From: Torpedo marmorata
Lineage: Eukaryota
Assembly (NCBI GenBank): GCA_977017645.1
Contig: OZ360238.1
Coordinates: forward strand, 5,890,001-5,954,000
Direction of reading: 5' to 3'
Length of the DNA stretch: 64,000 nucleotides
In this document: piece after piece, positions 6,137 to 59,957 of the stretch
Layout: each line of letters opens with the position of its first letter
How positions within the stretch are numbered: position 1 is the first letter of the stretch
The notes under the pieces: generated by a model
What the model was told of the DNA's origin: nothing
Seen by the model: the letters and a program-made list of their open reading frames with translations, nothing else
Database searches by the model: none
Position numbers and translations under genes: made by a program

Positions 6137-7864
6137 AATATAGGATATTGATAGTAGAGGATCATCAGGGGGCAAATTGATAGTAGAGGATCATCAGGCG
6201 GCATGGGGGGGTGCAGTGGCCCTTCCTTGTTCTGGTGGTCAAATCGGGTGTGGAAGGCATTGAGTTCATCTGGGACTGAGGCTTTGCTGTCTCCTACTGC
6301 ACCAGATTTGGTTTTGTAGCAGGTGATGTCATTTAGGCCCTGCCACAGCTGTCGGGTATCCTTCGTTGTTTCCATTCTTGTCCGGAAACTCCACTTTGCC
6401 CGGGAGATGGCTTTCCATAGGTTGTACCTACTCCTTGTGTCGTGTTCTGGACCTCCAGACTTAAATGCCTGCTCTCAGCAGGTTCTGGATTTCATTGTTC
6501 ATCCAGGGCTTCTGGTTGGGGAAAACCCTGAACGATTTGGTGGGGACACACTCATCAGCAGCTGTATTGATAAAGTCTGTAACGACCCTGATGTAATCAT
6601 TCAGATTCTCAGCTGAGTTCTTGAACACTGCCCAATCCACTGACTCGAGGCAGACCTGCAACCCTTCTTCAGCCTCCCGTGACCACCTTCTAGCTATCCT
6701 GATCTCTGGAGCCTCTCTTTTTAGGCTCTGTCTGTATGAAGGCAGAAGGTGATCCGACTTGCCAAAATGCGGTCTCGGGAAAGAACGGTAGGCCTTCCTT
6801 ATCTTGGTGCAGCAGTGATCGAGTGTGCTGGGATCTCTGGTGCAGCAGCTTATGAGCTGTTGGTAATTGGGCAGGGTTTTCTCGAGACAGGCCTGGTTAA
6901 AGTCACCGACTAAGATTTGTAGTGCATCAGGGTGGGCTGCCTCTTGTTTACTGACCACATCATGCAGCTCCGCAAGTGCCTGTTTGTAATTGGCATCGGG
7001 AGGGATACAAACTCCGGTGAGAATCACTGATGAGAATTCTCGGGGTAGAGAGAAGGGTCTGCATTTAATTGAGATTCACTCTAAGGCAGTGGAGCAGGAG
7101 ATCAACATGTCCCCAACATCCGTGCACCAGCCGCTATTACCGGTAACTAAAAAGCACACACAACCCCTTCTCTCTTTGCCAGTATCCGAGTTCCGATCTA
7201 GTCTGTGAATAGTGGAACTCTCCGGTCGGATGGCAGCCAGGTCTTTGTGCAGCAAACAACTGAGATTTGTCTCCCTTGTCTCTGATAAAGCAGCCTTGCC
7301 CCAAGGTTGTCAATTTTATTTTCTAATGACTGGATATTTGCCAATAGTATGGAAGGTAGGGGAGGTCTCAGTCCCCTGCGCTTCAGTCTGGTTTGGATCC
7401 CAGCCCTCACCTGGTGGGTCACCTGGTGTACAAACAGCCCTTCTGACCTTGACCTTGGTGGTGGCCCGGCCCTTTAAGGCCTCTACATTCCAGCCAGCCT
7501 GACTCAGCCGTTGCCGGGAGATTTTAAGTTTGTTTATGCGAATCAGCAGCTGCTCCTTGAGAAGAAGACTGCATGCTGCCCTGTGGTAAACCACTTTGTA
7601 TGTATTATGGCCTGAGGCAGGTATGACCATGACCTGTCTGTCTGTCCCGGTGACCCCTCCCCCTTTACCTGGAATAAAGGCCTTGAGCCAGCAACTCCTC
7701 CCCCAGTTCCGGGACAATCCAGCAGGGATCATCAGGTCAAGGCATAGTCTGCCCTGGCTTTGATTCTGTTAATAAAAGCCTTGTTAATTCCTGCACTTCT
7801 AGACTCGTGTCGGTTATTGATAGGTATATCAATTTTATTAACAGTTTCAACAAAATACGAATCA

Positions 7865-10240
7865 ATGGAGAATTTGTTAAAGCCAGACAAGCTAGACATC
7901 GACCCCCTGGCCCAAGACGCTGCAAGCGATTTTGAACTGAGGCAACGCTGCTTCACAGCCTACGTGAGGTCGTCCGGAGCGGCTACCGACGAGCAGAAAC
8001 TCGATATCCTCATGTCCAGGGTAAGCAAGCGAGTGTATGGCGCCGTCAGAGACTGTGGGACTTTTGATGATGCCTTGGTCGCCCTCCGAACGCTGTACCT
8101 GACGCCTGCGAACGAGATTTTCGCAAGGCACCGGATATCGCAGCGGTACCAGCGACCCGGAGAGTCGGTCTCCGAATATATCCAGGACGTGATGCTCCTG
8201 GTACGAGCGTGTGACTGTCGAGCCCTGACGGCTGAGCAACACTCCGAGATTCTGGCAAGGGACACTATCATAAAAGGGATCAGGTCGGGCTACATCCGCC
8301 AGCGATTGCTGGAACACGCCGACCTGACCCTGAAATCGACTGTCCAGAACATCCTGAATCTGGACTCAGCCCTAAAGAACGCTGACGCTATGCAGGCGCA
8401 GCCTGCTTCTTGGATCGCCCCAACCGTCAGCCCTACAAGCAACGCGACGGCTGCTGCCGTCTACCGGGACCCGCTCGCCGCCGCCGACGCTATCCGTGAG
8501 TTGGCCGCTGCCGCCGCTGCCCGAGAGCCCGCCGCTACCCGTGAGTTAACCGCTGCCGCTATCACCCGGGAGCCCGAGAAGTGCTACTTCTGCGGGCTCG
8601 ACAAGCACCCGCGCAAGCGCTGCCCGGCCCGAGACGCGACTTGTTCTAGCTGTGGCAAGAAAGGCCACTATGCTAAGGTCTGCCGCTCCAAGTCGCGCAC
8701 GGGTCCGAGCAGCGCCGCGTGCGAGGTACGGGAGCGGCCATCTTACTCGACTCCACTTCCGGCGGAGACCTCGTGTGAGGTCTGGAGGCAGCCATCACAG
8801 CGCGCAGCACTTCCGTTTTCCAGCAGCGCCACGTGCGACGGGAGGGGGCGGCCATCTTACCCGACGTCACTTCCTGAGGAGACCTCGTGCGAGGACTGGA
8901 GGCGGCCATCTTGGTCCACACATCCGTTCTCTACATTTCCGGCGCGGCCATTTTATAATCTCACCGCAGCACTTCCAGCACTCCCGGCTCCACCCCCTCG
9001 TAGCGACACGTACGAGCTACGGGAGCTGCCACCGGATCAAGATCAAGACTTCGTCTCGACCCTGGCATCCGTGACGCTGGACCAGAGCGCGCCCCATCAA
9101 CTGTCCAGATCCATGATGGACATCCTCGTTGAGGGGCATAAGACCACCTGCCTGTTCGACACAGGCAGTACAGAAAGTTTTATCCATCCTGACACTGCCC
9201 AGCGCTGTGGCCTCACCATTGTACCGGTAAGCCAGAGGGTGGCCATGGCGTCTGGAACGCACACAACAGACATCCGGGGGGGTTGTGTGGTGAATATAGT
9301 GGTACAGGGCACGGAATATCGGGAGTTTTTATTGTTAATCATGCCCCGTTTGTGTGCTCCTGTATTGCTGGGATTGGACTTCCAAAGCCACCTGCGTAGC
9401 GTCACCATGCACTATGATGGGCCCCACCCCCCAATCGTTGTGACTAACCCCCAATATTTAATTAATACGCCCCAGACTACCTGTGGTCTCTCCACACTAA
9501 AGACCCAACCCCCGCCACTCTTCGCCAACCTGACCCCTGACTGTAAGCCCATCGCAACTAAAAGTAGGCGATACAGTGCAGGGGACAGGGCATTCATTAA
9601 GGCGGAGGTGCAGCGTTTACTGGGGGAAGGGATCATTGCACCCAGTAACAGCCCCTGGAGAGCACAGGTAGTCGTGGTGAAGAACGGGGCTAAGAGCCGG
9701 ATGGTGGTGGACTATAGCCAGACCATCAACCGGTTCACGCAACTGGACGCCTATCCGCTGCCGAAGATCGCGGATATGGTCAACCAGATTGCTCAATACA
9801 AAGTCTTCTCCACCATCGACCTTAAGTCGGCTTACCACCAGCTCCCAATCCGCCGGGAGGACCGAGTATACACCGCTTTCGAGGCGGACGGCAGATTATT
9901 CCATTTACTGCGCGTTCCCTTCGGGGTAACAAATGGGGTATCCGTGTTCCAAAGGGAGATGGACAGGATCATTGACCAGTTCAAGCTCACTGCCACCTTC
10001 CCGTACCTGGACGACATCACCATCTGTGGTCATGATCGCCAGGATCACGACAGGAACCTTCGGAAGTTCTTACAGGCGGCCGAGACGCTGAACCTCACAT
10101 ATAACAAGGAGAAATGCGTGTTCGGGACTACCCGACTCGCTATCCTGGGGTGCGTCGTGGAAAACGGGGTGATTGGACCCGACCCCGACCGCATGCGCAG
10201 TGTTGGAACTTCCGATCCCCGTTACCCCCAAAGCACTTAA
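7865..10240 (+). CDS. Gag-protease-reverse transcriptase polyprotein (5' part of a frameshifted gag-pol)
   Basis: ATG at 7865 (MENLLKPDKL). Two zinc knuckles CYFCGLDKHPRKRC and CSSCGKKGHYAKVC, protease LFDTGS, RT motifs DLKSAYHQ, PFG and YLDD. Confidence 0.9.
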   Translation: MENLLKPDKLDIDPLAQDAASDFELRQRCFTAYVRSSGAATDEQKLDILMSRVSKRVYGAVRDCGTFDDALVALRTLYLTPANEIFARHRISQRYQRPGESVSEYIQDVMLLVRACDCRALTAEQHSEILARDTIIKGIRSGYIRQRLLEHADLTLKSTVQNILNLDSALKNADAMQAQPASWIAPTVSPTSNATAAAVYRDPLAAADAIRELAAAAAAREPAATRELTAAAITREPEKCYFCGLDKHPRKRCPARDATCSSCGKKGHYAKVCRSKSRTGPSSAACEVRERPSYSTPLPAETSCEVWRQPSQRAALPFSSSATCDGRGRPSYPTSLPEETSCEDWRRPSWSTHPFSTFPARPFYNLTAALPALPAPPPRSDTYELRELPPDQDQDFVSTLASVTLDQSAPHQLSRSMMDILVEGHKTTCLFDTGSTESFIHPDTAQRCGLTIVPVSQRVAMASGTHTTDIRGGCVVNIVVQGTEYREFLLLIMPRLCAPVLLGLDFQSHLRSVTMHYDGPHPPIVVTNPQYLINTPQTTCGLSTLKTQPPPLFANLTPDCKPIATKSRRYSAGDRAFIKAEVQRLLGEGIIAPSNSPWRAQVVVVKNGAKSRMVVDYSQTINRFTQLDAYPLPKIADMVNQIAQYKVFSTIDLKSAYHQLPIRREDRVYTAFEADGRLFHLLRVPFGVTNGVSVFQREMDRIIDQFKLTATFPYLDDITICGHDRQDHDRNLRKFLQAAETLNLTYNKEKCVFGTTRLAILGCVVENGVIGPDPDRMRSVGTSDPRYPQST

Positions 10241-11960
10241 ACGATGCCTCGGGTTTTTCTCCTATTATGCGCAGTGGGTCCCAAACTACTCGGACAAAGC
10301 CCGACCCCTCGTCAAGTCCACCAAGTTTCCCCTGGCAGCGGAGGCACGTGAGGCTTTCGACCTCATAAAGGGGGACATCGCCCGAGCAGCGATGCACGCG
10401 GTGGACGAGTCGGAACCTTTTCAGGTAGAGAGTGACGCCTCGGACTTCGCACTGGCTGCTACCCTCAACCAGGCGGGAAGACCGGTAGCGTTTTTCTCCC
10501 GCACCCTTCAAGGCCCCGAAATTCGGCACTCCGCGGTAGAGAAAGAGGCCCAGGCCATTGTCGAGGCTGTCCGGCACTGGAGGCACTATCTCGCCGGAAA
10601 ACATTTTACCCTGCTGACGGACCAGCGCTCCGTCGCTTTCATGTTTAACAGCCAGCAGCGGGGTAAAATTAAAAATGATAAAATCATGAGGTGGAGAATA
10701 GAACTCTCCACCTACAATTACGACATCCTTTACCGTCCCGGGAAGCTCAACGAGCCCCCTGACGCTCTATCCCGGGGATCGTGCGCCAGCGCGCAGATCG
10801 ACCGGTTATACGCCCTACATAATGACCTCTGCCACCCAGGAGTCACCAGGCTGTTCCACTTCATTAAAGCACGGAACCTGCCTTTCTCCCTGGATGAGGT
10901 CAAGACCATGACCAGCAGCTGCCGAGTCTGTGCGGAATGCAAACCGCAGTACTACCGCCCCGACAGAGCACAGCTGGTCAAAGCCACCCGCCCCTTCGAA
11001 CGTCTCAGTATAGACTTCAAGGGCCCCCTCCCCTCCACGAACCGCAATGTGTACTTCCTCAACATCATCGATGAGTACTCGCGGTTCCCCTTTGCCATCC
11101 CCTGCCCAGACACCTCGGCGGCGTCGGCTATCAAGGCTCTCCACCAGGTTTTCACCGTGTTCGGGTTCCCCAGCTATGTCCACAGCGACCGGGGGTCCGC
11201 GTTCATGAGCGGGGAGCTGCGACAGCACTTGCAGACCCGAGGCATCGCTACCAGCAGGACCACGGGGTACAACCCACGGGGGAACGGACAGGTGGAGAGG
11301 GAGAACGCCACAGTATGGACAGCGACACTACTGGCCCTGAAAGCAAAAGGGTGGCCAGTGGCTCGCTGGCAGGAGGTTCTCCCGGACGCCCTCCACTCTA
11401 TACGATCCCTCTTATGTACCGCCACTAACACTACCCCTCACGAACGTATCTTTTCCTTCCCCAGAAAATCGACCACCGGGACTACACTCCCCGCCTGGCT
11501 GACGTCCCCGGGGCCGGTGCTACTCCGCAAACATCTTCGGAGTAGCAAGTACGAGCCCTTAGTCGAGAGGGTGCAGCTGATCCATGCAAACCCGCAGTAC
11601 GCATTCGTGGTTCTCCCCAACGGGCGGGAAGACACGGTGTCAATACGGGACCTGGCGCCTGCAGGAGCGTCTGAAGAGGTCCCCGACAGCGGGAACGCCG
11701 GGTCGCAGCTGCCCCCACCGGACCATCCGCCTCCCAGCACGACGTTGTCCCCGTCACAGCTGTACTGGCCACTAGCCAGGCAGGAGGCGAACCAGCCCCA
11801 GATCCACCCTACTGTACCTACTCCCACTCCGCAGCCACAACCATCCCCGCGGGCATCACGTATTTTCACTCGTACCCTCATTCCACAACCACTACCATCA
11901 CCGCTGGCGCTACGCAGGTCACGGCGGCAAATCCGGCCGCCGGCGAAACTCGACCTGTAA
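10199..11960 (+). CDS. RT connection, RNase H and integrase (3' part of pol, shifted frame)
   Basis: ESDAS, EKEAQAI and TDQ RNase H motifs; HNDLCH...CRVC zinc finger; IDFKG, HSDRG and NGQVER DDE triad. No chromodomain evident. Start is the approximate frameshift position. Confidence 0.9.
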
Positions 11961-12624
11961 AAACTGTATATTATCTATGTATTCTGTATTTTTTTCTTCT
12001 TTTTTTACAGTATCCACTTCACCCCCCCGTCGGACTTGTTCTAAAAGAAGGGGTGAATGTGGTAAACCACTTTGTATGTATTATGGCCTGAGGCAGGTAT
12101 GACCATGACCTGTCTGTCTGTCCCGGTGACCCCTCCCCCTTTACCTGGAATAAAGGCCTTGAGCCAGCAACTCCTCCCCCAGTTCCGGGACAATCCAGCA
12201 GGGATCATCAGGTCAAGGCATAGTCTGCCCTGGCTTTGATTCTGTTAATAAAAGCCTTGTTAATTCCTGCACTTCTAGACTCGTGTCGGTTATTGATAGG
12301 TATATCATGCCCATTGCAGTGAAAGGAGGTTGGATGGAGAATATTTACAAGGAAATGTAGTTGTGGTCTCTGCAGCCCGCAGAAAGTTGCCGGTGATCGC
12401 TGGCGCCATTTTTTTTGCATGGACATGGACCCCAAGATCTCTCTGTACCTCCGCACTGTTAAGAATCCTGCCATTAACCACGAACTCCACCTTAAGTCAG
12501 GGTGTCAAACTGATTGAGGCGATGTGATGGAGGTGTGCAAGATCAGGATGGGGTTGAGTAAGGAAAAGGGTGAGATTAACAGAGGTCAGGAACGCAGATT
12601 TTTAATTTTGAGCAAATTTTTAAA

Positions 12625-33628: not shown

Positions 33629-34576
33629 TGGGTATGTGCCACTTAATGTCCACGATACGTTCTGTGAAATTGGGCGTTATGCAATGTGGATGTTGTGCGA
33701 ACACCATATTATATACTTAGTAAAGCTATATGGGATACTGTAGTGTACCTGTAAACTTTTTATTTGTAATTAGGGATCAGTGTGGGGACCGACACTGGGC
33801 TGTAGGCAGAAAGCGGGGCAGCGGGGTCAGTGTGGGGACCGACACGGGGCTGTGGGGAGAGAACGGGGTAGCGGGATCAGTCTGGGGACCAACACGGGAC
33901 TGTGGGGAGAGAGCGGGGCAGTGAGATCAGTGTGGGGACTGACACGGGCTGTGGGGAGAGAGCGGAGCAGTAGGATCAGTGTGGGGACCGATACAGGGCT
34001 GTGGGGAGAGAGCGGGGCAGTGGGATCAGTGTGGGGACCGACACGGGGCTGTGGGGAGAGAGCGGGGCAGTGGGATCAGTGTGGGGACTGATACAGGGCT
34101 GTGGGGAGAGAGCGGGGCAGTGGGATCAGTGTGGGGACCGACACGGGGCTGTGGGGAGAGAGAGGGGCAGTGGGATCAGTGTGGGGACCAACACGGGGCT
34201 GTGGGGAGAGAGAGGGGCAGTGGGATCAGTGTGGGGATCGACACGGGGCTGTGGGGAGATAATGGGGCAGTGGGATCAGTGTGGGGACCGACACTGGGCT
34301 GTGGGGAGAGAGCGGGGCAGTGGGATCAGTGTGGGGACTGATACAGAGCTGTGGGGAGAGCACGGAGAAGTGGGATTAGTTGGGATTGATACAGGGCTGT
34401 GGGGAGAGAGCGGGGCAGTCGGATCAGTTCGGGTATACGGTATACAATTTCCTATAGCTAGCGATCGCTTTTTCTCAATTGCTGCGGACTTGCTCGTGGT
34501 AACTGAATAATTATGGCACCACGGATGTATATGCGGTCGGACGTTTCCCGAACGGATGTTAAGCGGTGCATACCTG
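33629..34576. mobile_element. Tigger/pogo-family MITE containing a minisatellite, inserted in a CR1 fragment
   Basis: Right end reverse-complements to CAGGTATGCACCGCTTAACATCC and is followed by TA. Left end GGTATGTGCCACTTAATGTCC matches after CpG decay. CR1 sequence rejoins across it (...GCCATTGGGT/GTATTTAAGGCAGAG). Confidence 0.75.
33772..34428. repeat. G-rich 50-bp minisatellite, ~13 copies (GGGATCAGTGTGGGGACCGACACGGGGCTGTGGGGAGAGAGCGGGGCAGT)
   Basis: Tandem copies are directly visible. Confidence 0.95.
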
Positions 34577-35072: not shown

Positions 35073-35178
35073 TTAGCCCAGTCTTTCCATCAGCTCCATG
35101 GCTGCAGAGGCTGAGCTGTGTCCAAAGATGAAGACTCCACACAGGATGGTCAGCACTGCCCATGCGATCAGGCCTGAC
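35073..35178 (-). CDS. slc38a8: SLC38A8-like amino-acid transporter, terminal coding exon
   Basis: Acceptor ttttccccccacccAG. Encodes (R)SGLIAWAVLTILCGVFIFGHSSASAAMELMERLG*. Phase matches the preceding exon and the peptide resembles the last transmembrane helix of SLC38A7/8. Confidence 0.88.
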
Positions 35179-42849: not shown

Positions 42850-42901
42850 CTTACTGTGGGAGCCTCGCCTCCCCTCCGCACCACGCTCAGGAGACACAGG
42901 C
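42850..42901 (-). CDS. slc38a8: SLC38A8-like, 52-bp coding exon
   Basis: Acceptor ctctctctccacAG, donor AAG|GTAAAG. Encodes (G)LCLLSVVRRGGEAPTV(R). Phases fit both neighbouring exons. Confidence 0.82.
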
Positions 42902-43059: not shown

Positions 43060-45162
43060 AGGGAGGAGGAAGGGAAGGGGAGGAATGGAGCAGGTGGGGA
43101 GTCGTGGTGGGGGGAGGGGGAGTAGGGAAGGGAGGGGAAAGGGTGTAGGAGAGAGATGCGTAGAGGAGGGGATAACAAGGGGGACGGGGAGAGAAGAGGC
43201 AGTGGGGAGAGGGAGGGACGGTCGTTGGGGAGGGGAGGGGAAGGGAAGGGTCAGTGGAGATGCTGGAACAGGAAAGCAGGGATTGGAGGGGATGGAGGAT
43301 AGACGAGGGGATAGGGAGGGAACGGTGGGTGGGAGGGGAGGATGGGGAAAAGACAGAAGGTATGATTATCGGGAGCGGGGTCAGAGGGGACAGTTGTCAG
43401 GGAGGGGAGGACGGGAGGGGGAATGGTTGGTCATCAGGGGCAGAGTCAGAGGGGGGCGGTCGTTGGGGAAGTGATGGGGAGGGGAGGGGTTGGAGGGGAC
43501 GGTCATCAGGGGAGGGGTGAGAAGGGAGGGGAGGAGTTGGAGGGGCTGATTGTCGGGGAGGGGAGGAGAGATGGATGGGGAGTGGACGATCATTGTGGGA
43601 GGGGGAGAATGGTGGAGGGATGGATGGGGAGGGGACAGTCATCGTGGGAGGGGGGATAGTGAAGGATGGGGAGGGGATAGACATCGTGGGAGGGGGGGAT
43701 AGTGAAGGATGCGGAGGGAATGGTCATCGGGGGAGGGGGGATAGTGAAGGATGGGGAGGGAATGGTCATCGGGGGAGGGGGGATAGTGAAGGATGGGGAG
43801 GGGATGGTCATCAGGGTAGGGGGAGAGACGAGGAGATGATCTTTCCCTCTGCCTGCTCATCTCCTCCCGTGCCAGGATGTGCAGGTGGGGCACTGCAGAC
43901 ATGGTGTGGTACAGGAGCACTGTGAGGGGCCGAGCAGCCTCTGCTGCTGCTATCGCCATGCCCTATCAGACGGAGCTCAGCAGAAGGGGTCGGGGCAGGG
44001 GGAGGGTGGGGATATTGAACCCTCGGTCCGAGGACCTCCGAGGGGAGACAAGGATGAAGGACTGCGGCCGCATTGTGGACCCACAGTCGCTGCTTGGCCC
44101 TCGGAGGTCCCACAGCTCTGGCTTCTCATGTCTGCAGTCTCCTGTGTCCTCCCCAGATAGGGGGAGGGATGGGTGGGATGGTGATACCCCCTGATGTGAG
44201 GAGGGTGGGAGAAGCGGGACGTGCCCCCCCGCCCGGATGTGGGGAGGGTAGCAGAGGTATGGGTGGGTTGGGGATTCCCTCCCGGATGTGCGAAGGGTGC
44301 GGTAACAGGGCATAGGAATCCTCCCTGGATGGAGGGAGGGAGGGTAAGTGGGGGCATAGGAATCCCCCCAGGATGGAGAGAGGGGAGGGTAAGTGGGGGA
44401 TAGGAATCCCCCCAGGATGGAGGGAGGGGAGGATAAGTGGGGGATAGGAATCCCCCCCAGGATAGAGGGAGGGAGGGTAAGCAGGGGATAGGGATTTCCC
44501 CCCAGGATGGAGGGGGGAGGGTAAGTGGGGCATTGGACAGGGGGTGTTCCATCAGGATGGTTGCCCCGGGCGTGAAGGAGTCCCTCTCACCCCTGCCCCG
44601 TGCCCACGTCCCACCTGGGAAGAGGAAGATGAAGAAGGCGCTGATTCCCCCGATGAGGTGGATGACGTCGGAGATGTCCGGGACAACGAGGGCCGCCCCC
44701 AAGCTCAGCCCGAGCCAGCCGTAGGTCACCAGCATCCTCAGCCTCCCCATGGCAGCTGCTATGGGCACTGAGTGGCCAGTCCCACAATTCACACACAGCT
44801 CCAGGACCACGGACCTGGGCAAGGGGACGGGGGATGGGGAGAGGGAGAGGGAGAGAGGGAGAGAGAGAGAGAGAAGGGGAGAGGGAGGCAGAAAGAGAGG
44901 GGGAGAGGGAGAGAGGGAGGAGAGGGGGAAAGAGGGGAGGGTGAAGGAAAGGGAAGGAGAAGGGGAGAGGGGGAGAGGTAGGGAGAGAGAGGGGAAAAGT
45001 GGTAGAGAGAGGGGGAGAGAGATGGTAGGGGGAAAGGCAGAGAGAGGGAGAGAGAGAGAGGGTGAGAGAAAGGTGGCAAGGGAGGAAGAGAGGGAGGCAG
45101 TGGGAGGGAAAGAGAGATGGGGAGAGGGAGAGAAGAGAGTGAGAGGAAGGAGAAAGAGAGAG

Positions 45163-47070: not shown

Positions 47071-47218
47071 CGTCCCAAGTGCAGGATTATGGGATAGATA
47101 GTGACGATGGACACAGCAAAAAGCAGTCTCCCGATGATGATGAGCATCTCGTTATCCGGGTATGACATCAGGATATCTGCTGCCACATCTACGCCAAACG
47201 TCCAGTATCCGTATACCC
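47071..47218 (-). CDS. slc38a8: SLC38A8-like, 148-bp coding exon
   Basis: Acceptor tctgtgtttcAG, donor ACG|GTAAGC. Encodes (G)[48 protein letters not shown](R). This frame is absent from the ORF track and was translated by hand. Confidence 0.93.
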
Positions 47219-50570: not shown

Positions 50571-52174
50571 GACCATTGGCAGCGCTCTCTCACCGGCTCT
50601 CACCATCACCCACCGGCACCCTATCACCCTCCACCTCCTGATCCCACTGTCGCACCAGGGGTATCACCTTCCCAGGAACTCCCCTCCCACCCCCACGGGC
50701 TCCAGTCTAGTACCACACCGCCCCCCCCCCCGTCCCCCGCAGTGTTACTGAGACTCCCAGTCCCTCCCGTCACTGCTCAGTGACCATTCACGGGTGGGCT
50801 AAGCCGGCACGTCAGGTCGTACTCCTGCCATCTCCAGTGACATGGATCAGTGGGTGTGGGCAAGGTCAGACAAACAGACAGTTCTCTCTGGAGCGTCGGA
50901 GGCTGAGTGGAGGTGTATAAAACAGTGAGAGGCATCGACAGGGTGTATTGTCAGAATCTTTTCCCCAGGGTAAAAGCGTCACACATGAGAGGACGTGCTT
51001 TTAAAGTGAGGAGGGGGGTGGATTTTAATGGGGATGTTTTTACAGAGCGCTGGGTGCCAAAAGCAGGCACAATTGTCATGTTTAAGGGGCATTCAGACAG
51101 GAATTGCAACACGGAGACAATGGAGGGATGGAACCAGGTGCAAACAGATGGGATTGGTTCAAGTTGGCACCATGTTGGAGCAGAATTAGGCCATTCGGCC
51201 CATCGAGTCTGCCCTACCATTCCATCATGGCTGATTTACTCCCCTTTTCAACCCTCTTCTCCTGACTTCTCCCCATAACCCTTGATTCCCTTTCTGATCA
51301 AGTACGTATCCCCCTCCACCTTAAATATCCCCAAAGACATGGTCCCCCACAGCCATCTGCAGCAATGAATTCTGCAGATTCATCACCCTCGGGTGAAGAA
51401 ATTCCTCTGTTCTTTCTGTTCTAAAAGAAAAATCTGTTCTAAAGAGCTTTTTTTGTATTTCTGAGGCTGTTCCCTCTGGTTCCAGACTCCCACACCATAG
51501 GAAACATCCTGTCCACGTCCACTCTATCAAGGCCTTTCAGTGTTCGATGGGATCAATGGGATCTCCCCTCTTTCTTCTAAGCTCCATCGAGTACAGACCC
51601 AGAGTCTTCAAACGTTCCCTTTTACTCCAGGGATCATTCTTGTGAACCTCCTCTGGACCCTCTCCAGTACGAACAAATCCTTCTTTCGAAAAGGAGCTCA
51701 AAACTACTCACAATACTCGCTGCAGTCTGAACAATGCCTTATAAATTCGGGTGGCGTCTGTGTGGAAGTTTGCACGTGCTCCCTGTGAGGGTTTCCTCCC
51801 ACAAGCAGCACGGGGAGTACAGTGAGGTAAGGAGGGGGCATTGGACTGATGGGACTGGGACGGAGATAAGGGAGAAAATAACCCACTGGTTCTGAAGCAG
51901 TGGGTCAGGAGCTAATCCGGTTCAGTGTCAGATGTCGGGAGAAGTGGTGGCAACAGATACAGCAAGTGGACAGGAAGGGGTGGAGGGAACAGGCCAGGTG
52001 TTGTGGAGAATGCCACGTAACTCTGCATCCACTGCTGCTGGTGCGAGGATAACATTGGCAGTCTGAAGTGATCCATTCACCAGTGAGCTCTCCAGGGAGC
52101 TGGGGCTGTTCTTCCAGGGCGAGAGATGTGAGGAGTTGTGGCCACCTTGGCTAAGATGTTACATAAGATGTGGC

Positions 52175-52266
52175 AGGGTGAATGAGGAGACAGGAGAACA
52201 GGGAGAGGCTGTTACCTGTGACAGAGTGAATGAGGAGTCAGGCGAACGGGGAGAGGCTGTTACCTG
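52175..52266. repeat. Two detached units of the 48-bp minisatellite
   Basis: GAATGAGGAGACAGGAGAACAGGGAGAGGCTGTTACCTG units separated from the main array by an L1 fragment. Confidence 0.85.
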
Positions 52267-53152
52267 CCATGTTATAGCATTCATGACGCTTATGGCTAGA
52301 AGATCTATTTTGCTTAGGTGGAAAGATTCTATTCCGCCTACCTATGTCCAGTGGATGTGCCAAACTTTATCTTTTTTATATTTAGAGAAGATTAGATGTG
52401 CTATAATTGATAAGTTTGTCAGAAAGTGGCGCCCGTTTATGAATTTTTTTCATGATTCTTAAACCTGCTTTAATACGATATGTTTTATTATTGTCTTGTA
52501 GGGGCTCGCGACCTACTCCGCAGGACAACACAGTCGAACATGACGATCGCGCAGGCGGCGCGTGATCCAAACGGCCTGTTTCCATAGGCCACAACAGCAG
52601 GGAGGAAACAGGCCAATCCCCGACGACGGATCGTGGCCCGACCAATCCTGGTCGTCGCATCACAAGCCACGCCTCATCAGTGACGTGGCAGCCCGGCTGG
52701 GCCCGCCTGTAAATGCAGAGTCGACAGCAGAGTAGGGATCTCCTCTTGAACTCCAGTGACTAGAGCTATAACCGACTCGACACGCAGAGCTACAACCGTA
52801 GCGACGCGCTACAGCCTTTCCCTTCATGTTAACTATTTTCATTTATGTAACGGAACATTTTCTTGTTTATTACTGAATTTTAAGGCATCCCAACTTCTAA
52901 TTTTTAATTTTATTTTTTCTCTATTAGGCAAGGGGGTTAGATAACCTAATTTAGTTTAGTATTAGTTAGATAGTTCAGGATATATATCTTTTTTACTGTT
53001 TTTATTATCCAAACTACAGAGCTGTGGGGTATCAATTACTGTTTGTTAGGATGTATATCCGTTTGATTTATAATCTGTAACTTCGCATTCGATATATTAT
53101 GATTTTTTTTTGTGTGCTTAAACTAAATAAAAAGATTGGAAAAGAAAGAATA
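52267..53152 (+). mobile_element. Old L1 3' fragment inserted in the minisatellite
   Basis: VIAFMTLMARRSILLRWK...LYLEKIR...KWRPF (L1 ORF2 C-terminus), AT-rich UTR, AATAAA and A-rich tail. Confidence 0.8.
52497..52813 (+). mobile_element. CpG-rich solo LTR (317 bp)
   Basis: Termini TGTAG...CTACA. Imperfect 4-bp TSD GTCT/GCCT. Ends (TGTAGGGGCTCGCGA..., ...GCGCTACA) resemble the sense strand of the LTR at 477-4557. Confidence 0.72.
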
Positions 53153-56100
53153 AGGAGAACGGGGAGAGGGTGTTACCTGTGACGGAGTGAATGAGGAGAC
53201 AGGCGAACGGGGAGAGGTTGTTACCTGTGACGGAGTGAATGAGGAGACAGGCGAACGGGGAGATGCTGTTACCTATGACAGAGTGAATGAGGAGTCAGGC
53301 GAACGGGGAGAGGCTGTTACCTGTGATGGAGAGGTTGAGGAGACAGGCGAACGGGGAGATGCTGTTACCTGTGACGGAGTGGATGAGGAGACAGGCGAAC
53401 GGGGAGAGGCTGTTACCTGTGACGGAGTGAATGAGGAGACAGGCGAATGGGGAGATACTGTTACCTGTGACGGAGTGAATGAGGAGACAGGCGAACGGGG
53501 AGAGGCTGTTACCTGTGATGGACTGAATGAGGAGACAGGCGAACGGGGAGAGGCTGTTACCTGTGATGGAGTGGATGAGGAGACAGGCGAACGGGGAGAG
53601 GCTGTTACCTGTGATGGAGTGGATGAGGAGACAAGCGAACGGTGAGAGGCTGTTACCTGTGACGGAGTGAATGAGGAGACAGGCGAACGGGGAGAGGCTG
53701 TTACCTGTGATGGAGTGGATGAGGAGACAGGCGAACGGTGAGAGGCTGTTACCTGTGAAGGAGTGGATGAGGAGACAGGCGAACGGGGAGAGGCTGTTAC
53801 CTGTGATGGAGTGAATGAGGAGACAGGCTAACGGGGAGAGGCTGTTACCTGTGACAGAGTGAATGAGGAGACAGGCGAACGGGGAGAGGCTGTTACCTGT
53901 GACAGGGTGAATGAGGAGACAGGTGAACGGGGAGAGGCTGTTACCTGTGACGGAGTGAATGAGGAGACAGGCGAACGGGGAGAGGCTGTTACCTGTGACA
54001 GAGTGAATGAGGAGACAGGCGAACGGGGAGAGGCTGTTACCTGTGATGGAGTGGATGAGGAGACAGGCGAACGGTGAGAGGCTGTTACCTGTGACGGAGT
54101 GGATGAGGAGACAGGCGAACGGGGAGAGGCTGTTACCTGTGACGGAGTGAATGAGGAGACAGGCGAACGGGGAGAGGCTGTTACCTGTGACAGAGTGAAT
54201 GAGGAGACAGGCGAACGGGGAGAGGCTGTTACCTGTGACAGGGTGAATGAGGAGACAGGCGAACGGGGAGAGGCTGTTACCTGTGACGGAGTGAATGAGG
54301 AGACAGGCGAACGGGGAGAGGCTGTTACCTGTGACAGAGTGAATGAGGAGACAGGCGAACAGTGAGAGGTTGTTACCTGTGACGGACTGAATGAGGAGAC
54401 AGGCGAACGGGGAGAGGCTGTTACCTGTGACGGAGCGAATGAGGAGACAGGCGAACGGTGAGAGGCTGTTACCTGTGACAGGGTGAATGAGGAGACAGGC
54501 GAACGGTGAGAGGCTGTTACCTGTGACGGACTGAATGAGGAGACAGGCGAACGGGGAGAGGCTGTTACCTCTGATGGACTGAATGAGGAGACAGGCGAAC
54601 GGGGAGAGGCTGTTACCTGTGACGGAGTGGATGAGGAGACAGGCGAACGGGGAGTAGCTGTTACCTGTGATGGAGAGGATGAGGAGACAGGCGAACGGGA
54701 AGAGGCTGTTGCCTGTGACGTACTGAATGAGGAGACAGGCGAACGGGGAGAGGCTGTTACCTGTGATGGAGAGGATGAGGAGACAGGTGAACGGGGAGAT
54801 GTTGTTACCTGTGATGGAGAGGATGAGGAGACAGGCAAACGGGGAGAGGTTGTTACCTGTGATGGAGAGGATGAGGAGACAGGCGAACGGGGAGAGGCTG
54901 TTACCTGTGACGGAGTGGATGAGGAGACAGGCGAACGGGGAGAGGCTGTTACCTGTGATGGAGTGAATGAGGAGACAGGTGAACAGGGAGAGGCTGTTAT
55001 ATGTGACAGAGTGAATGAGGAGACAGGCGAACGGGGAGAGGCTGTTGCCTGTGACGTACTGAATGAGGAGACAGGCGAACGGGGAGAGGCTGTTACCTTT
55101 GATGGAGAGGATGAGGAGACAGGCGAACGGGAAGAGGTTGTTACCTGTGATGGAGAGGATGAGGAGACAGGCGAACAGGGAGAGGTTGTTACCTTTGATG
55201 GAGAGGATGAGGAGACAGGTGAACGGGGAGAGGCTGTTACCTGTGACGGAGTGAATGAGGAGACAGGCGAACGGGGAGAGGCTGTTACCTGTGATGGAGT
55301 GGATGAGGAGACAGGCGAACGGGGAGAGGCTGTTGCCTGTGAGGGAGTGAATGAGGAGACAGGCGAACGGGAAGAGGTTGTTACCTGTGATGGAGAGGAT
55401 GAGGAGACAGGCGAACGGGGAGAGGTTGTTACCTGTGATGCAGAGGATGAGGAGACAGGCGAACGGGGAGAGGCTTTTACCTGTGACGGAGTGAATGAGG
55501 AGACAGGCGAACGGGGAGAGGTTGTTACCTGTGACAGAGTGAATGAGGAGACAGGCGAACGGGGAGATGCTGTTACCTGTGATGGAGAGGATGAGGAGAC
55601 AGGCGAACGGGGAGAGGTTGTTACCTGTGACGGAGTGGATGAGGAGACAGGCGAACGGGGAGAGGCTGTTACCTGTGATGGAGAGGATGAGGAGACAGGC
55701 GAACGGGGAGAGGTTGTTACCTGTGATGGAGAGGATGTGGAGACAGGCGAACGGGGAGAGGTGGTTACCTGTGACGGAGTGGATGAGGAGACAGGCGAAT
55801 GGGGAGAGGCTGTTACCTGTGATGGACTGAATGAGGAGACAGGCGAACGGGGAGATGCTGTTACCTGTGATGGAGAGGATGAGGAGACAGGCGAACGGGG
55901 AGAGGCTGTTACCTGTGACGGAGTGAATGAGGAGACAGGCGAACGGGGAGAGGTTGTTACCTGTGACGGAGAGAATGAGGAGACAGGCGAATGGGGAGAG
56001 GCTGTTACCTGTGATGGACTGAATGAGGAGACAGGCGAACGGGGAGATGCTGTTACCTGTGATGGAGAGGATGAGGAGACAGGCGAACGGGGAGAGGCTG

Positions 56101-58101
56101 TTACCTGTGACGGTGTGAATGAGGAGACAGGCGAACGGGGAGAGGTTGTTACCTGTGACGGAGTGGATGAGGAGACAGGCAAACGGGGAGAGGTTGTTAC
56201 CTGTGACGGAGTGGATGAGGAGACAGGCGAACGGGGAGAGGTTGTTACCTGTGACGGAGTGGATGAGGAGACAGGCAAACGGGGAGAGGCTGTTACCTGT
56301 GACGGAGTGGATGAGGAGACAGGCGAACGGGGAGAGGTTGTTACCTGTGACGGAGTGGATGAGGAGACAGGCGAACGGGGAGAGGCTGTTACCTGTGACA
56401 GAGTGGATGAGGAGACAGGCGAACGGGGAGAGGCTGTTACCTGTGACAGAGTGGATGAGGAGACAGGCGAACGGGGAGAGGTTGTTACCTGTGACGGAGA
56501 GGATGAGGAGACAGGCGAACGGGGAGAGGCTGTTACCTGTGACGGAGTGGATGAGGAGACAGGCGAACGGGGAATGGCTGTTAACTGTGACAGAGTGGAT
56601 GAGGAGACAGGCGAACGGGGAGAGGTTGTTACCTGTGATGGAGAGGATGAGGAGACAGGCGAACGGGGAGAGGCTGTTACCTGTGACGGAGTGAATGAGG
56701 AGACAGGCGAACGGGGAGAGGCTGTTACCTGTGACAGAGTGAATGAGGAGACAGGCGAACGGGGAGATGCTGTTACCTGTGATGGAGAGGATGAGGAGAC
56801 AGGCGAACGGGGAGAGGTTGTTACCTGTGACGGAGTGGATGAGGAGACAGACGAATGGGGAGAGGCTGTTACCTGTGATGGACTGAATGAGGAGACAGGC
56901 GAACGGGGAGATGCTGTTACCTGTGATGGAGAGGATGAGGAGACAGGCGAACGGGGAGAGGTTGTTACCTGTGACGGAGTGGATGAGGAGACAGGCGAAC
57001 GGGAAGAGGTTGTTACCTGTGACGGAGTGGATGAGGAGACAGGCGAACGGGGAGAGGTTGTTACCTGTGACGGAGTGGATGAGGAGACAGGCGAACGGGG
57101 AGAGGCTGTTACCTGTGACGGAGTGGATGAGGAGACAGGCGAACGGGGAGAGGTTGTTACCTGTGACGGAGTGGATGAGGAGACAGGCGAACGGGGAGAG
57201 GTTGTTACCTGTGACGGAGAGGATGAGGAGACAGGCGAACGGGGAGAGGCTGTTACCTGTGACAGAGTGGATGAGGAGACAGGCGAACGGGGAGAGGTTG
57301 TTACCTGTGACAGAGAGGATGAGGAGACAGGCGAACGGGGAGAGGCTGTTACCTGTGACGGAGTGGATGAGGAGACAGGCGAACGGGGAGAGGTTGTTAC
57401 CTGTGACGGAGTGGATGAGGAGAGAGGCGAACGGGGAGAGGTTGTTACCTGTGACGGAGTGGATGAGGAGACAGGCGAACGGGGAGAGGCTGTTACCTGT
57501 GATGGAGAGGATAAGGAGACAGGCGAACGGGGAGAGGTTGTTACCTGTGAGGGAGTGGATGAGGAGACAGGCGAACGGGGAGAGGTTGTTACCTGTGACG
57601 GAGTGGATGAGGAGACAGGCGAACGGGGAGAGGTTGTTACCTGTGATGGAGTGGATGAGGAGACAGGCGAACGGGGAGAGGCTGTTACCTGTGACGGAGT
57701 GGATGAGGAGACAGGCGAACGGGGAGAGGTTGTTACCTGTGACGGAGTGGATGAGGAGACAGGCGAACGGGGAGAGGTTGTTACCTGTGACGGAGTGGAT
57801 GAGGAGACAGGCGAACGGGGAGAGGCTGTTACCTGTGACGGAGTGGATGAGGAGACAAGTCACCATGGAGAGTAGCTGTTACCTGTGACGGAGTGGATGA
57901 GGAGACAGGCGAACGGGGAGAGGCTGTTACCTGTGACGGAGTGGATGAGGAGACAGGCGAACGGGGAGAGGCTGTTACCTGTGACGGAGTGGATGAGGAG
58001 ACAGGCGAACGGGGAGAGGTTGTTACCTGTGACGGAGTGGATGAGGAGACAGGCGAACGGGGAGAGGCTGTTACCTGTGACGGAGTGGATGAGGAGACAG
58101 G
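53153..58101. repeat. 48-bp minisatellite, ~100 copies, derived from the slc38a8 exon 3' end and splice donor
   Basis: Plus unit GATGAGGAGACAGGCGAACGGGGAGAGGCTGTTACCTGTGACGGAGTG. Minus unit GCCTGTCTCCTCATCCACTCCGTCACAG|GTAACAGCCTCTCCCCGTTC. The last unit overlaps the exon at 58075-58101. Confidence 0.97.
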
Positions 58102-58189
58102 TCACCATGGAGAGTGTGCAGATGAGGACCCAGTGCCCCACTCTCTGGTTCTCCATGCGGCTGTAGATGGCCACACTCGCCTCGTGACA
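58075..58189 (-). CDS. slc38a8: SLC38A8-like, 115-bp coding exon (most 5' exon found in the window)
   Basis: Acceptor ctctgtgtgtgtgttgcAG, donor CAG|GTAACA. Encodes CHEASVAIYSRMENQRVGHWVLICTLSMVTCLLIHSVT(G), matching the SLC38A7/8 QCH...IY.SM....W...TG segment. CHEA favours SLC38A8. Confidence 0.92.
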
Positions 58190-58454
58190 CTGCAACACAC
58201 ACAGAGACGCAGGTCAGCGGCACAGCACTTCCATCTCCACCGCACTCCCCTCCCTGACTGCCTCCACTCCTATCCTGCGTCTAAGGAGACTCGTCCAGCT
58301 GTGGGCTGGGCAGGATGGTGCTTCATATGTAGGAGAGAAGCAACATGTTTAGATAGCATTTTCATCTTCCCAGATGAGGCTGTAGTGGAGCATGATGGCA
58401 TAATGTAAAATGATGATAGTAACGGATTGTCCCATATCGGGACAAAGACTATCC

Positions 58455-59957
58455 GTTGATAGCCGACATCCGAACATCATTCAAGAGGGTGAACCCTCAC
58501 AAGGCATCAGGCCATGATGGCGTACGTGGCCGGGTACTGAAAATCTGTGCCAACCAACTAGCTGGAGTGTTCACGGATATTTCAATCTCTCACTGCTGCA
58601 GTCGGAGGTTCCCACCTGCTTTAAAAGGGCATCAATCATCCCAAGAAGAGCAGAGTGAGCTGCCTCAACAACTATTGCCCGGTAGCACTAACATCTACTG
58701 TGATGAAATGCTTTGAGAAGTTGGTCATGGCCAGAATTAACATTTACCTCGCCAAAGGATTAGACCCACTGCAATTCACCTATTGTCACAATCGCTCCAG
58801 AGCAGATGCTATATCATTGGCTCTCCACTCTGCTCTCGAATAGAGCAACTCATACATACGGCTGCTCTTCATTGACTACAGCTCAGCCTTCAACACCATT
58901 ATTCCCTCAGTGCTGGTCAACAAGCTCCAAACCCTGGGCTGCTACACCCCCCGCTGCAACTGGATCCTTGACTTCCTCATTGGAAGACCACAGTCAGTAC
59001 GAATTGGAAACAATGTCTCCTCCTCACTGACGATCAACACAGGCACACCTCAAGGATACGTGCTTAGCCCACTGCTCTACGCACTATACACCCATGACTG
59101 TGTAGCCAGGCACAATTCCAATGCCATCTACAAATTTGCTGATGACACCACAGTTGTCGGCAGAATCACAAATGGCAATGAGGAAGCGTACAGGAGGGAG
59201 ATAGATCAGCTCGTTGAGTGGTGTCACAACAACAACCTTGCACCCAATGTTAGCAATACCAAGGAGATAATTGTGGACTTCAGGAGGAAGTCAGGAGAAC
59301 ACGATCCAGTCCTCATCGAGGGCTCAGTAGTGGAGAGAGTCAAGAACTTAAAATTCCTGGGTGTCTGTCCTGGAGCCTCCAAGTCGATGCAATCACCAAG
59401 AAGGCTCGCCAGCGGATACACTTTGTGAGGAGTTTGAAGAGATTCAGTATGTCACTGAAGACTCTCAAAATTGTCTAACCATATAACCATATACAGGTGT
59501 ACAGTGGAGAGCATTCTGGCTGGTTGCATCACTGCCTTGGTATGGAGGTGCCAACGCTCAGGACAGGAAAAAACTCCAGAGGGTTGTTAACTCGGCCTGT
59601 GACATCACAGGCACCAAACTTCACTCCATCGAGGCCATCTACAAGAGGCGGTGTCTTAAAAAAGCAGCCTCTATCCTCAAAGACCTCCCACCACCCAGGC
59701 CATGTCCTCTTCAATCTACTACCATCGGGAAAAACGTACAGGAGCCTAAAGACGAGCACTCTGTGGCACAAGGACAGCTTCTTCCCCGCTGCCATCAGAT
59801 TCCTGAATAATCAATGAACCAAAGACACTGCCTTACTTTGACTTTTTCTTGCACTATTTTTTTTAGGTAGCTTGTATAAATGTTTTACTGTGATGCTGCT
59901 GCAAAACAATGAATTTCATGACATGTTCATGACAATAAATTCTGATTCTGATTCTGA
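58455..59957 (+). mobile_element. Rex1/Babar-type LINE, 5'-truncated and degraded
   Basis: ORFs 58456..58716, 58655..58843 and 58910..59428 ([13 protein letters not shown]). AATAAA followed by an (ATTCTG)n tail. Confidence 0.88.

Follow-up and report, generated by a model that had tools for sequence, protein, structure and literature searches.

Minisatellites that reiterate a splice donor have been described at five human exon-intron borders. According to the available text of Borensztajn et al. (2006; PMC1557585), the only match for reiterated donors in a literature search that had most subscription journals outside its reach, intron 7 of human F7 holds a 37-bp VNTR of 5–9 copies whose unit includes 4 exonic bases, and the first donor is used. 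Constructs with 8–12 repeats left the choice of donor unchanged, and the yield dropped when more distal donors were forced. The same text gives 25 pseudo-sites for intron 2 of 6-16 (IFI6), 15–20 for the 31-bp VNTR of CBS intron 13, 10–15 copies of a 100-bp unit for LMNB2, and 16–18 copies of an 81-bp unit for PDGF intron 4; only the first donor is used in F7, LMNB2, and PDGF, and the first together with the next two in 6-16 and CBS. In amphioxus, the available part of PMC3087553 describes "mirage" minisatellites in the Adh3 and globin genes, made of exon-intron boundary copies with intact AG/GT that undergo concerted evolution, and splicing is reportedly undisturbed by them. A single duplicated AGGT segment, studied in connection with intron gain, was spliced at 6%–16% in human cells, as given in the accessible text of Hellsten et al. 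(2011; PMC3265369).

The window analyzed here is a stretch of 64,000 nt from Torpedo marmorata (contig OZ360238.1), and it contains an array of this known layout, the donor-reiterating minisatellite of the F7/CBS or mirage type, in the gene slc38a8 (Table 1). The first-pass annotation had named the gene correctly: the best matches, at 85%–90%, are SLC38A8 proteins of batoids and sharks, for exon 7 the top named ones in cartilaginous fishes are SLC38A8 at 81%–90%, and the protein carries the Aa_trans domain (PF01490, E = 6.6e-08). The gene model comprises 10 exons with an intact 441-aa frame, all splice sites being canonical and in phase, and a single copy was found in the genome. The same annotation had put the end of exon 6 at the CAG|GTAACA cut 58075/58074 and the next acceptor at 47218, and both positions proved right; intron 6 is 10.9 kb long. 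The exon 6 donor resembles the other donors of the gene, which fit the U1-pairing consensus at 6–7 of 9 positions.

Table 1. Features of the slc38a8 locus, in positions of the window
Feature	Position	Strand	Remarks
Last coding exon	35073..35178	-	To stop codon
Exon 9	42850..42901	-	52 nt
Exon 8	44615..44814	-	200 nt
Exon 7	47071..47218	-	148 nt; acceptor at 47218
Two further units, decayed	52169..52266	-	Past the insertion; one full unit at 52242-52195
Interspersed repeat	52267..53150	+	~885 bp; inserted close to the array's distal end; 5'-truncated, retroelement-like, A-rich 3' end
Nested piece of the interspersed repeat	about 52497-52815		~320 bp
48-bp minisatellite, main block	53153-58101	-	TRF: period 48, 103.1 copies, 93% matches, score 8277
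50-bp unit	57833..57882	-	Single; 41 nt of exon-end sequence; shifts frame by 2; first in-frame stop
Authentic donor, CAG|GTAACA	58069..58077	-	Cut 58075/58074; 7/9 positions fit U1-pairing consensus
Exon 6	58075..58189	-	115 nt; begins in phase 0, ends in phase 1; its final 27 nt form the exonic part of the first unit

That about 100 tandem 48-bp copies of the exon end and its donor lie here was confirmed both by TRF and by a unit-by-unit listing, which counts 103 head-to-tail units in the main block. The first unit spans the border of exon 6 with its intron, a border set by homology and frame. The donor 9-mer, CAGGTAACA, is identical in 92 of the 103 units; GT is kept in 98 and YAG|GT in 95. 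When the one full distal unit is added, the resulting 104 units fall into 61 distinct types. Differences from the exon copy grow distally, averaging 0.79, 1.59, and 1.77 per 27 nt in successive thirds of the array, and no higher-order periodicity was found within it (mean differences 3.1–3.6 at all lags). At its far end the array closes with an exon-like 27-mer whose donor is dead, and the interspersed repeat inserted near that end is 89%–94% identical to its best other copies. The 6.2-Gb genome has 26 occurrences of an exact 28-nt motif of the unit, all within the array, and a control gave 0, a confinement far beyond chance which indicates that the repeat was born at this locus. A dispersed element was also considered as the source of the unit and was ruled out, since genome-wide this motif was found in the slc38a8 array alone. 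Donor bases within the array vary much as the rest of the unit does (nine alternative alleles across the nine donor positions versus 34 across the other 39; P = 0.74), and selection on them, in the sense of either conservation or erosion relative to the remainder of the unit, was not detected.

From this analysis it appears probable that the minisatellite arose locally, from a seed that lay across the exon 6 donor, the slc38a8 gene itself being intact. The array is likely neutral, since the spliceosome would take the first donor and the repeats would leave with the intron. The seed may have been a duplication of ~50 bp, comprising about 41 nt of exon end and 9 nt of intron, of which the 50-bp unit in Table 1 would be a survivor; a 48-bp variant would then have spread through the usual turnover of tandem repeats, arrays in this region often beginning just behind exons, and the retroelement would have landed later near the distal end. 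Exon 6 would be defined from its own acceptor to the nearest donor, giving the 115-nt exon, and use of the downstream donors would drop with distance, as in the F7 minigenes.

The first-pass annotation had assumed a constant spacing of 48 bp, with all copies in the same phase. This is true of donors 1–5 but fails beyond them, as the interval from donor 5 to donor 6 (57883 to 57833) is 50 bp and read-through in the exon frame ends at a TGA (57862-57860); only donors 1–5 are in frame, and the other 98 of the 103 are out of phase and past the stop. Exon 6 would measure 115–307 nt with donors 1–5 and 163–307 nt with donors 2–5. Any leak to donors 2–5 would add 16–64 residues within a transmembrane helix, and transcripts leaking beyond donor 5 would meet the premature stop and be degraded. 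Translation agrees with the earlier reading that each retained unit adds 16 residues, NSLSPFACLLIHSVTG, and the expected location in a transmembrane region is supported as a predicted helix (residues 252–281 of the skate orthologue model), within which the exon 6/7 junction falls at G274. Among 19 candidate proteins no isoform with the insert was found; five matched, in the exon part only, and are ordinary orthologues, which is weak evidence. A search of runs with the last exon and its 3' flank listed 19 runs, none from this species, none with half of the words, and none of RNA. Four runs were compared with 57975-58460. In one, the contig of a relative, with 8 differences in 58130-58435, ends before the repeat, short of the donor; the other three gave one 35-base chance match and, in two cases, nothing.

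As in F7 (Borensztajn et al. 2006; PMC1557585), the first monomer lies over the exon-intron boundary and identical donors follow downstream. In contrast to F7 as its available text presents it, the slc38a8 array has 103 copies, 27 or more exonic bases, and an in-frame unit, meets a stop once unit 5 is passed, and carries a tract resembling that of an acceptor; use of the first donor is demonstrated in F7 and predicted for slc38a8. The layout is also that of 6-16, CBS, LMNB2, and PDGF, which, in the copy numbers given there, are smaller by a factor of four to ten. The amphioxus globin mirages, with 3–6 units in BflGb6 in the accessible part of PMC3087553, are far shorter than this vertebrate array. 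In size, therefore, the array is above the published cases (5–25 copies), yet it is modest for its region. The view that such an array is unusual in kind was not supported by comparison with the five human cases (PMC1557585) and the lancelet mirages (PMC3087553), as far as the accessible texts of both go, nor with a second array next door. Nor was the proposal that copy number tunes splicing, given that the F7 constructs with 8–12 repeats kept their donor choice and that the donor positions of this array show neither conservation nor erosion against the rest of the unit. Sequestration of U1, also suggested earlier, is unlikely because about 100 sites on one pre-mRNA would stand against the most abundant snRNP.

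Other explanations were weighed against a first-donor, likely neutral array. It is rather unlikely, in our judgement, that donors 2–3, or at most 2–5, are used measurably, giving in-frame isoforms with 16–64 extra helix residues and less normal transporter. Donors 1–5 share an identical 9-mer, are in frame, and would yield exons of 115–307 nt; the first four downstream units are nearly identical to the authentic donor context; and two of the five human cases in the available text of PMC1557585 leak to donors 2–3 (6-16 and CBS, with two pseudo-sites used). In the same text, however, F7, LMNB2, and PDGF use the first donor alone, and repeat number is without effect in F7. Gains or losses of units far inside the array must leave donors 1–5 untouched, no donor-specific selection was seen in the array (P = 0.74), and the insert is less hydrophobic than the native helix (19-residue mean at most 1.34 versus 1.92), which makes a damaged protein likelier than a useful isoform. 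This proposal is the idea of the first-pass annotation narrowed to the five in-frame donors. Each unit can also be read as a 3' splice site with a donor immediately behind it, and its pyrimidine tract is better than that of the acceptor at 47218. On this basis donor 1 might splice to a unit at least two repeats away and rebuild CAG|GTAACA, for stepwise removal of the intron or, in an RS-exon version, for retention of an in-frame block of units that skips the stop in unit 5–6; we regard this as improbable, and it is very doubtful that the array forms a ladder of about 95 recursive sites whose length sets how much of a transporter of eye and brain is made. At the level of sequence the units do carry a pyrimidine tract, a branch motif, and YAG followed by GT (the latter in 95/103): positions −20 to −6 hold 10–13 pyrimidines of 15 (12 in 69 of 102 units), compared with 8–15 in the nine real acceptors of the gene, where the true acceptor at 47218 is the poorest at 8; the AG-free zone is 39–46 nt; and a yUNAy branch-like motif lies at −16. 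Precedents, in the parts of the papers available, are the AGGT duplication spliced at 6%–16% (PMC3265369) and the logic of vertebrate RS-exons (PMC6224609), which share AG|GT, a pyrimidine tract, and a donor rebuilt after splicing; these are a single duplication or RS-exon with experimental proof, whereas slc38a8 has about 95 potential sites. The resemblance to an acceptor, however, comes by accident from hydrophobic codons: of the nine exon ends of this gene, five are YAG and two reach 12 pyrimidines or more. In addition, C dominates the tract, T numbering just 4–6 in the six units displayed, the branch motif lies near the AG, a 10.9-kb intron has no need of stepwise removal, and in the neighboring 57-bp array the junction is TCG|GT, without an acceptor of this sort. 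Conservation of the putative recursive sites above their surroundings, checked within the array, was not observed (P = 0.74), and no minisatellite ratchet array is described in the literature matched, including the available text of PMC13196383, with most subscription journals outside the search. An acceptor-like appearance is not discussed for the F7-type cases in their accessible text, and we count it against the neutral reading.

Relaxed selection on slc38a8, or scant expression of it in this lineage, with mis-splicing caused by the array being tolerated rather than avoided, also seems to us a poor explanation. His270, in the repeated part of exon 6, replaces a Tyr present in 96 of 96 scored homologues (18 of 114 were not scored), the protein breaks three of 71 invariant columns (0–2 in six other cartilaginous fishes) and departs at 11 columns conserved to 95% (0–5 in the same six), and half of the gene span is minisatellite. 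Against this, each of the ten exons has an open frame, the right phase, and canonical sites, the gene is the only copy found, and the full-length protein is 75% identical to its skate orthologue, about the distance between skate and sharks (73%–76%). An assembly artefact inflating a short repeat is scarcely credible: although the array comes from one assembly, the 61 types among 104 units, the lack of any exactly repeated block of at least three units, the distal gradient of divergence, the absence of N, and the related decayed units past the inserted element all speak for a real array.

If the first donor is indeed used, first-donor choice, seen with 5–25 pseudo-sites in human genes, would hold with about 100 of them in a cartilaginous fish as well. 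With a second case next door, arrays of this kind would be tolerated and would arise repeatedly where minisatellites abound. Arrays that reiterate donors are misleading for gene annotation, too. Were the units used as acceptor plus donor, the locus would allow recursive splicing to be tested against exon definition where the competing sites are identical, and would serve likewise for intron gain through tandem duplication; were the ladder real, a minisatellite would be acting as an array of ratchet points in a vertebrate. SLC38A8 has been linked to foveal hypoplasia in people, in the accessible text of PMC8383911, and nothing in the analysis ties the array to a phenotype. With regard to structure, a PDB search with the single sequence gave no match, and one with an alignment reached SLC38A9 and SLC36A1; the fold predicted from the alignment was modest (pLDDT 66), and that from the single sequence unusable (pLDDT 44).

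Of the 584 kb around the array, 44% is minisatellite, and for the slc38a8 span the figure is 50%. Thirteen arrays of at least 2 kb lie in the 584 kb, seven of them longer than the 48-bp array, and at five of the nine slc38a8 donors an array starts within 100 bp. The neighboring gene, which we take to be NECAB-like from an ABM domain together with exon content and synteny, could not be named by homology: one search gave no match, an Atlas search gave none of use, and others gave a single 49-aa homologue without a name and a chance match to repetitive sequence; its Pfam ABM hit (E = 0.00077) is below the curated cut-off. This gene holds the second donor-reiterating array, with about 102 units of 57 bp.

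Tandem Repeats Finder resolved the 48-bp minisatellite in intron 6 of slc38a8 as one array of period 48 (103.1 copies, 93% matches), bearing out the approximately 100 tandem copies that the first-pass annotation had described. Its unit is also the one proposed there: on the minus strand, 27 nt from the end of the 115-nt exon 6 are followed by GTAACA and then by 15 bases. The donor is indeed reiterated, as the 9-mer of the authentic site (CAG|GTAACA, cut at 58075/58074) is identical in 92 of the 103 units, with GT kept in 98 and YAG|GT present in 95. An ungapped scan added one full unit at 52242 to the 103 of the main array, and 61 unit types were distinguished among these 104. A 28-nt unit motif occurred 26 times in the whole 6.2-Gb genome, every time inside the array (control motif, 0). 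That the units arose by stutter of the assembly is highly improbable, since the window is free of N, the array contains no exact repeat of any three-unit block, and differences between the units and the exon copy increase distally (0.79, 1.59 and 1.77 per 27 nt in successive thirds), all of which fits a real and evolving array. At the distal end, an interspersed repeat of ~885 bp separates the main array from the last two, decayed units. This repeat has an A-rich 3' end and a truncated opposite end, and its best copies match at 89–94% among the 81 matches scored of 3175 candidates. Because decayed units lie on its far side, we infer that the array is older than the insertion. Nested in the repeat is a ~320-bp piece whose short inverted ends read TGTAG...CTACA on the minus strand; it may be a solo LTR, and no second copy of it was found in 584 kb.

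Only the proposed phase was not sustained; otherwise, the initial observation is confirmed. The donors had been described as spaced by exactly 16 codons, but one interval (57883 to 57833) is 50 bp, and the reading frame continued from exon 6 passes through four 16-residue units before it meets TGA at 57862–57860. Consequently, only donors 1 (the authentic site) to 5 are in frame, and their use would produce exons of 115, 163, 211, 259 and 307 nt, and the other 98 lie downstream of the premature stop. The 50-bp unit differs at one position from the last 41 nt of exon 6, which suggests a seed of about 41 nt of exon and 9 nt of intron, although such a match could equally result from a later copying event. 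In the model of the skate orthologue (overall pLDDT 66), the exon 6/7 junction (G274) falls inside helix 252–281. The hydrophobicity of the insert reaches at most 1.34, below the 1.92 of the native segment, so additional units would be likely to disturb this helix rather than add one.

The host gene was modeled from the window plus 120 kb of neighboring sequence and comprises ten coding exons with canonical sites, encoding an open protein of 441 aa; for exon 5, two longer in-frame acceptor options also exist, and the 58-nt version fits the orthologue length. Exon 7 matches once in the 6.2-Gb genome, and its best named matches, all SLC38A8, come from sawfish (90%), skate (85%) and sharks (81–85%), pointing to a probable batoid host. 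The array sits in a 10.9-kb intron ending at 47218. Between the protein and its skate orthologue, identity is 75%, comparable to the 73–76% between skate and sharks. Relaxation of the gene is improbable as an explanation. The protein departs from the consensus at 3 of 71 invariant columns and at 11 of 175 near-invariant ones, above the counts in six other cartilaginous fishes (0–2 and 0–5, respectively) but inside the span covered by 67 full-length homologues. Residue 270, whose codon (58086–58088) is in the repeated part of exon 6, is His, while Tyr was found in all 96 scored homologues (114 compared, 18 not scorable). The Tyr codon is restored in none of the array units, and the His270 change may predate the array or be younger than it.

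The array belongs to an already known layout. One report (PMC1557585) describes it in F7, 6-16, CBS, LMNB2 and PDGF, with 5–25 copies as opposed to 103 in slc38a8; there, three of the five use the first donor only, and the remaining two splice additionally at a pair of proximal pseudo-sites. In the F7 minigenes of the same report, the most upstream donor always won, 8–12 repeats were without effect, and exon skipping rose when distal donors were forced. Similar lancelet arrays, called mirages, reportedly left splicing undisturbed (PMC3087553). We consider the best explanation, and a probable one, to be a neutral minisatellite spanning the exon 6 donor, of which the first donor would be used. 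Leaky use of donors 2–5 is considerably less probable. In the 102 units of 48 bp, allele counts gave no sign of retention or purging of donors: 9 alternative alleles were counted at the nine donor positions and 34 at the other 39 (permutation P=0.74). In raw counts the donor positions were less variable (12 vs 212 variant unit-sites), but distinct alleles were preferred because most of the 212 come from few amplified variants.

Because the end of exon 6, which codes for hydrophobic residues, is rich in pyrimidines, every unit downstream can also be read as a 3' splice site immediately followed by a donor (10–13 of 15 pyrimidines, an AG-free zone of 39–46 nt, and yUNAy at -16); real slc38a8 acceptors have 8–15 pyrimidines, the one at 47218 being the lowest. 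By analogy with RS-exons, which rebuild a donor after splicing (PMC6224609), donor 1 spliced to a unit acceptor would rebuild CAG|GTAACA, and re-splicing would leave the mRNA unchanged. A duplicated AGGT segment was spliced at 6–16% in human cells (PMC3265369). Such ratchet-type use is nevertheless unlikely here, given that YAG closes 5 of the 9 exon ends of slc38a8, 2 of the 9 are equally pyrimidine-rich, the unit tract is T-poor, and a neighboring 57-bp array lacks the acceptor feature. Among 19 sequencing runs listed by a search, none had half of the query words and none was recorded as RNA; alignment of four of them to the locus did not reach the exon 6 donor.

That 57-bp array is about 180 kb away on the opposite strand, beginning on the donor of a 54-nt exon that joins open exons on both sides in phase 0. 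Other sequence divides its roughly 102 units into four blocks (60, 3, 33 and 6), and the intron that holds them contains 79 GTAAGT. A later exon of the gene, which we take to be NECAB-like, has a weak Pfam ABM match. Reiteration of ~100-fold was thus seen at 2 of 13 donors examined, in two neighboring genes, a pattern that would be expected if minisatellites arise densely close to exons. Arrays of period at least 10 make up 44% of the bases in 584 kb around the window, including 13 of at least 2 kb, of which 7 exceed the 48-bp array in length (maximum 101 kb). Minisatellites occupy half of the slc38a8 span, and an array starts within 100 bp of 5 of its 9 donors (-26, 26, 52, 78 and 85 bp, the last four behind the donors of exons 2, 3, 8 and 5, respectively).

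Features in and around slc38a8. Plain numbers, window positions; G000:C51, positions on contig OZ360238.1; L002 to L035, pieces of neighboring sequence.
Feature	Position	Strand	Remark
slc38a8 exon 6	58189-58075	minus	followed by the array
48-bp array	53153-58101	minus	intron 6
Nested ~320-bp piece	52497-52815		within ~885-bp repeat
Decayed units	52169-52266		last two
50-bp minisatellite	33773-34428		13 copies
LTR retrotransposon	7567-12306
Intron 3 array	L002:7918 to L005:7594 (G000:C51:5961918-5991594)		29.7 kb; about 1200 copies of a 25-bp unit, taking up most of the intron
54-nt exon	G000:C51:5764809-5764862	plus	ends TCG|GTAAGT
57-bp array	L035:4809-8586, L033:9321-9434, L032:123-3590 (G000:C51:5764809-5793590)	plus	unit begins on TCG|GTAAGT
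Very long array	G000:C51:5697248-5727571		41 bp x 740
Very long array	G000:C51:5839204-5875427		16 bp x 2264
Very long array	G000:C51:6172758-6274000		22 bp x at least 4691

The 50-bp minisatellite lies about 650 bp past the stop codon of slc38a8; read on the gene strand, it is closely followed by AATAAA, and it may be part of the 3' UTR. The LTR retrotransposon carries long gag-pol-like frames that occupy at least two reading frames, and its two identical 250-bp LTR stretches point to a recent insertion.
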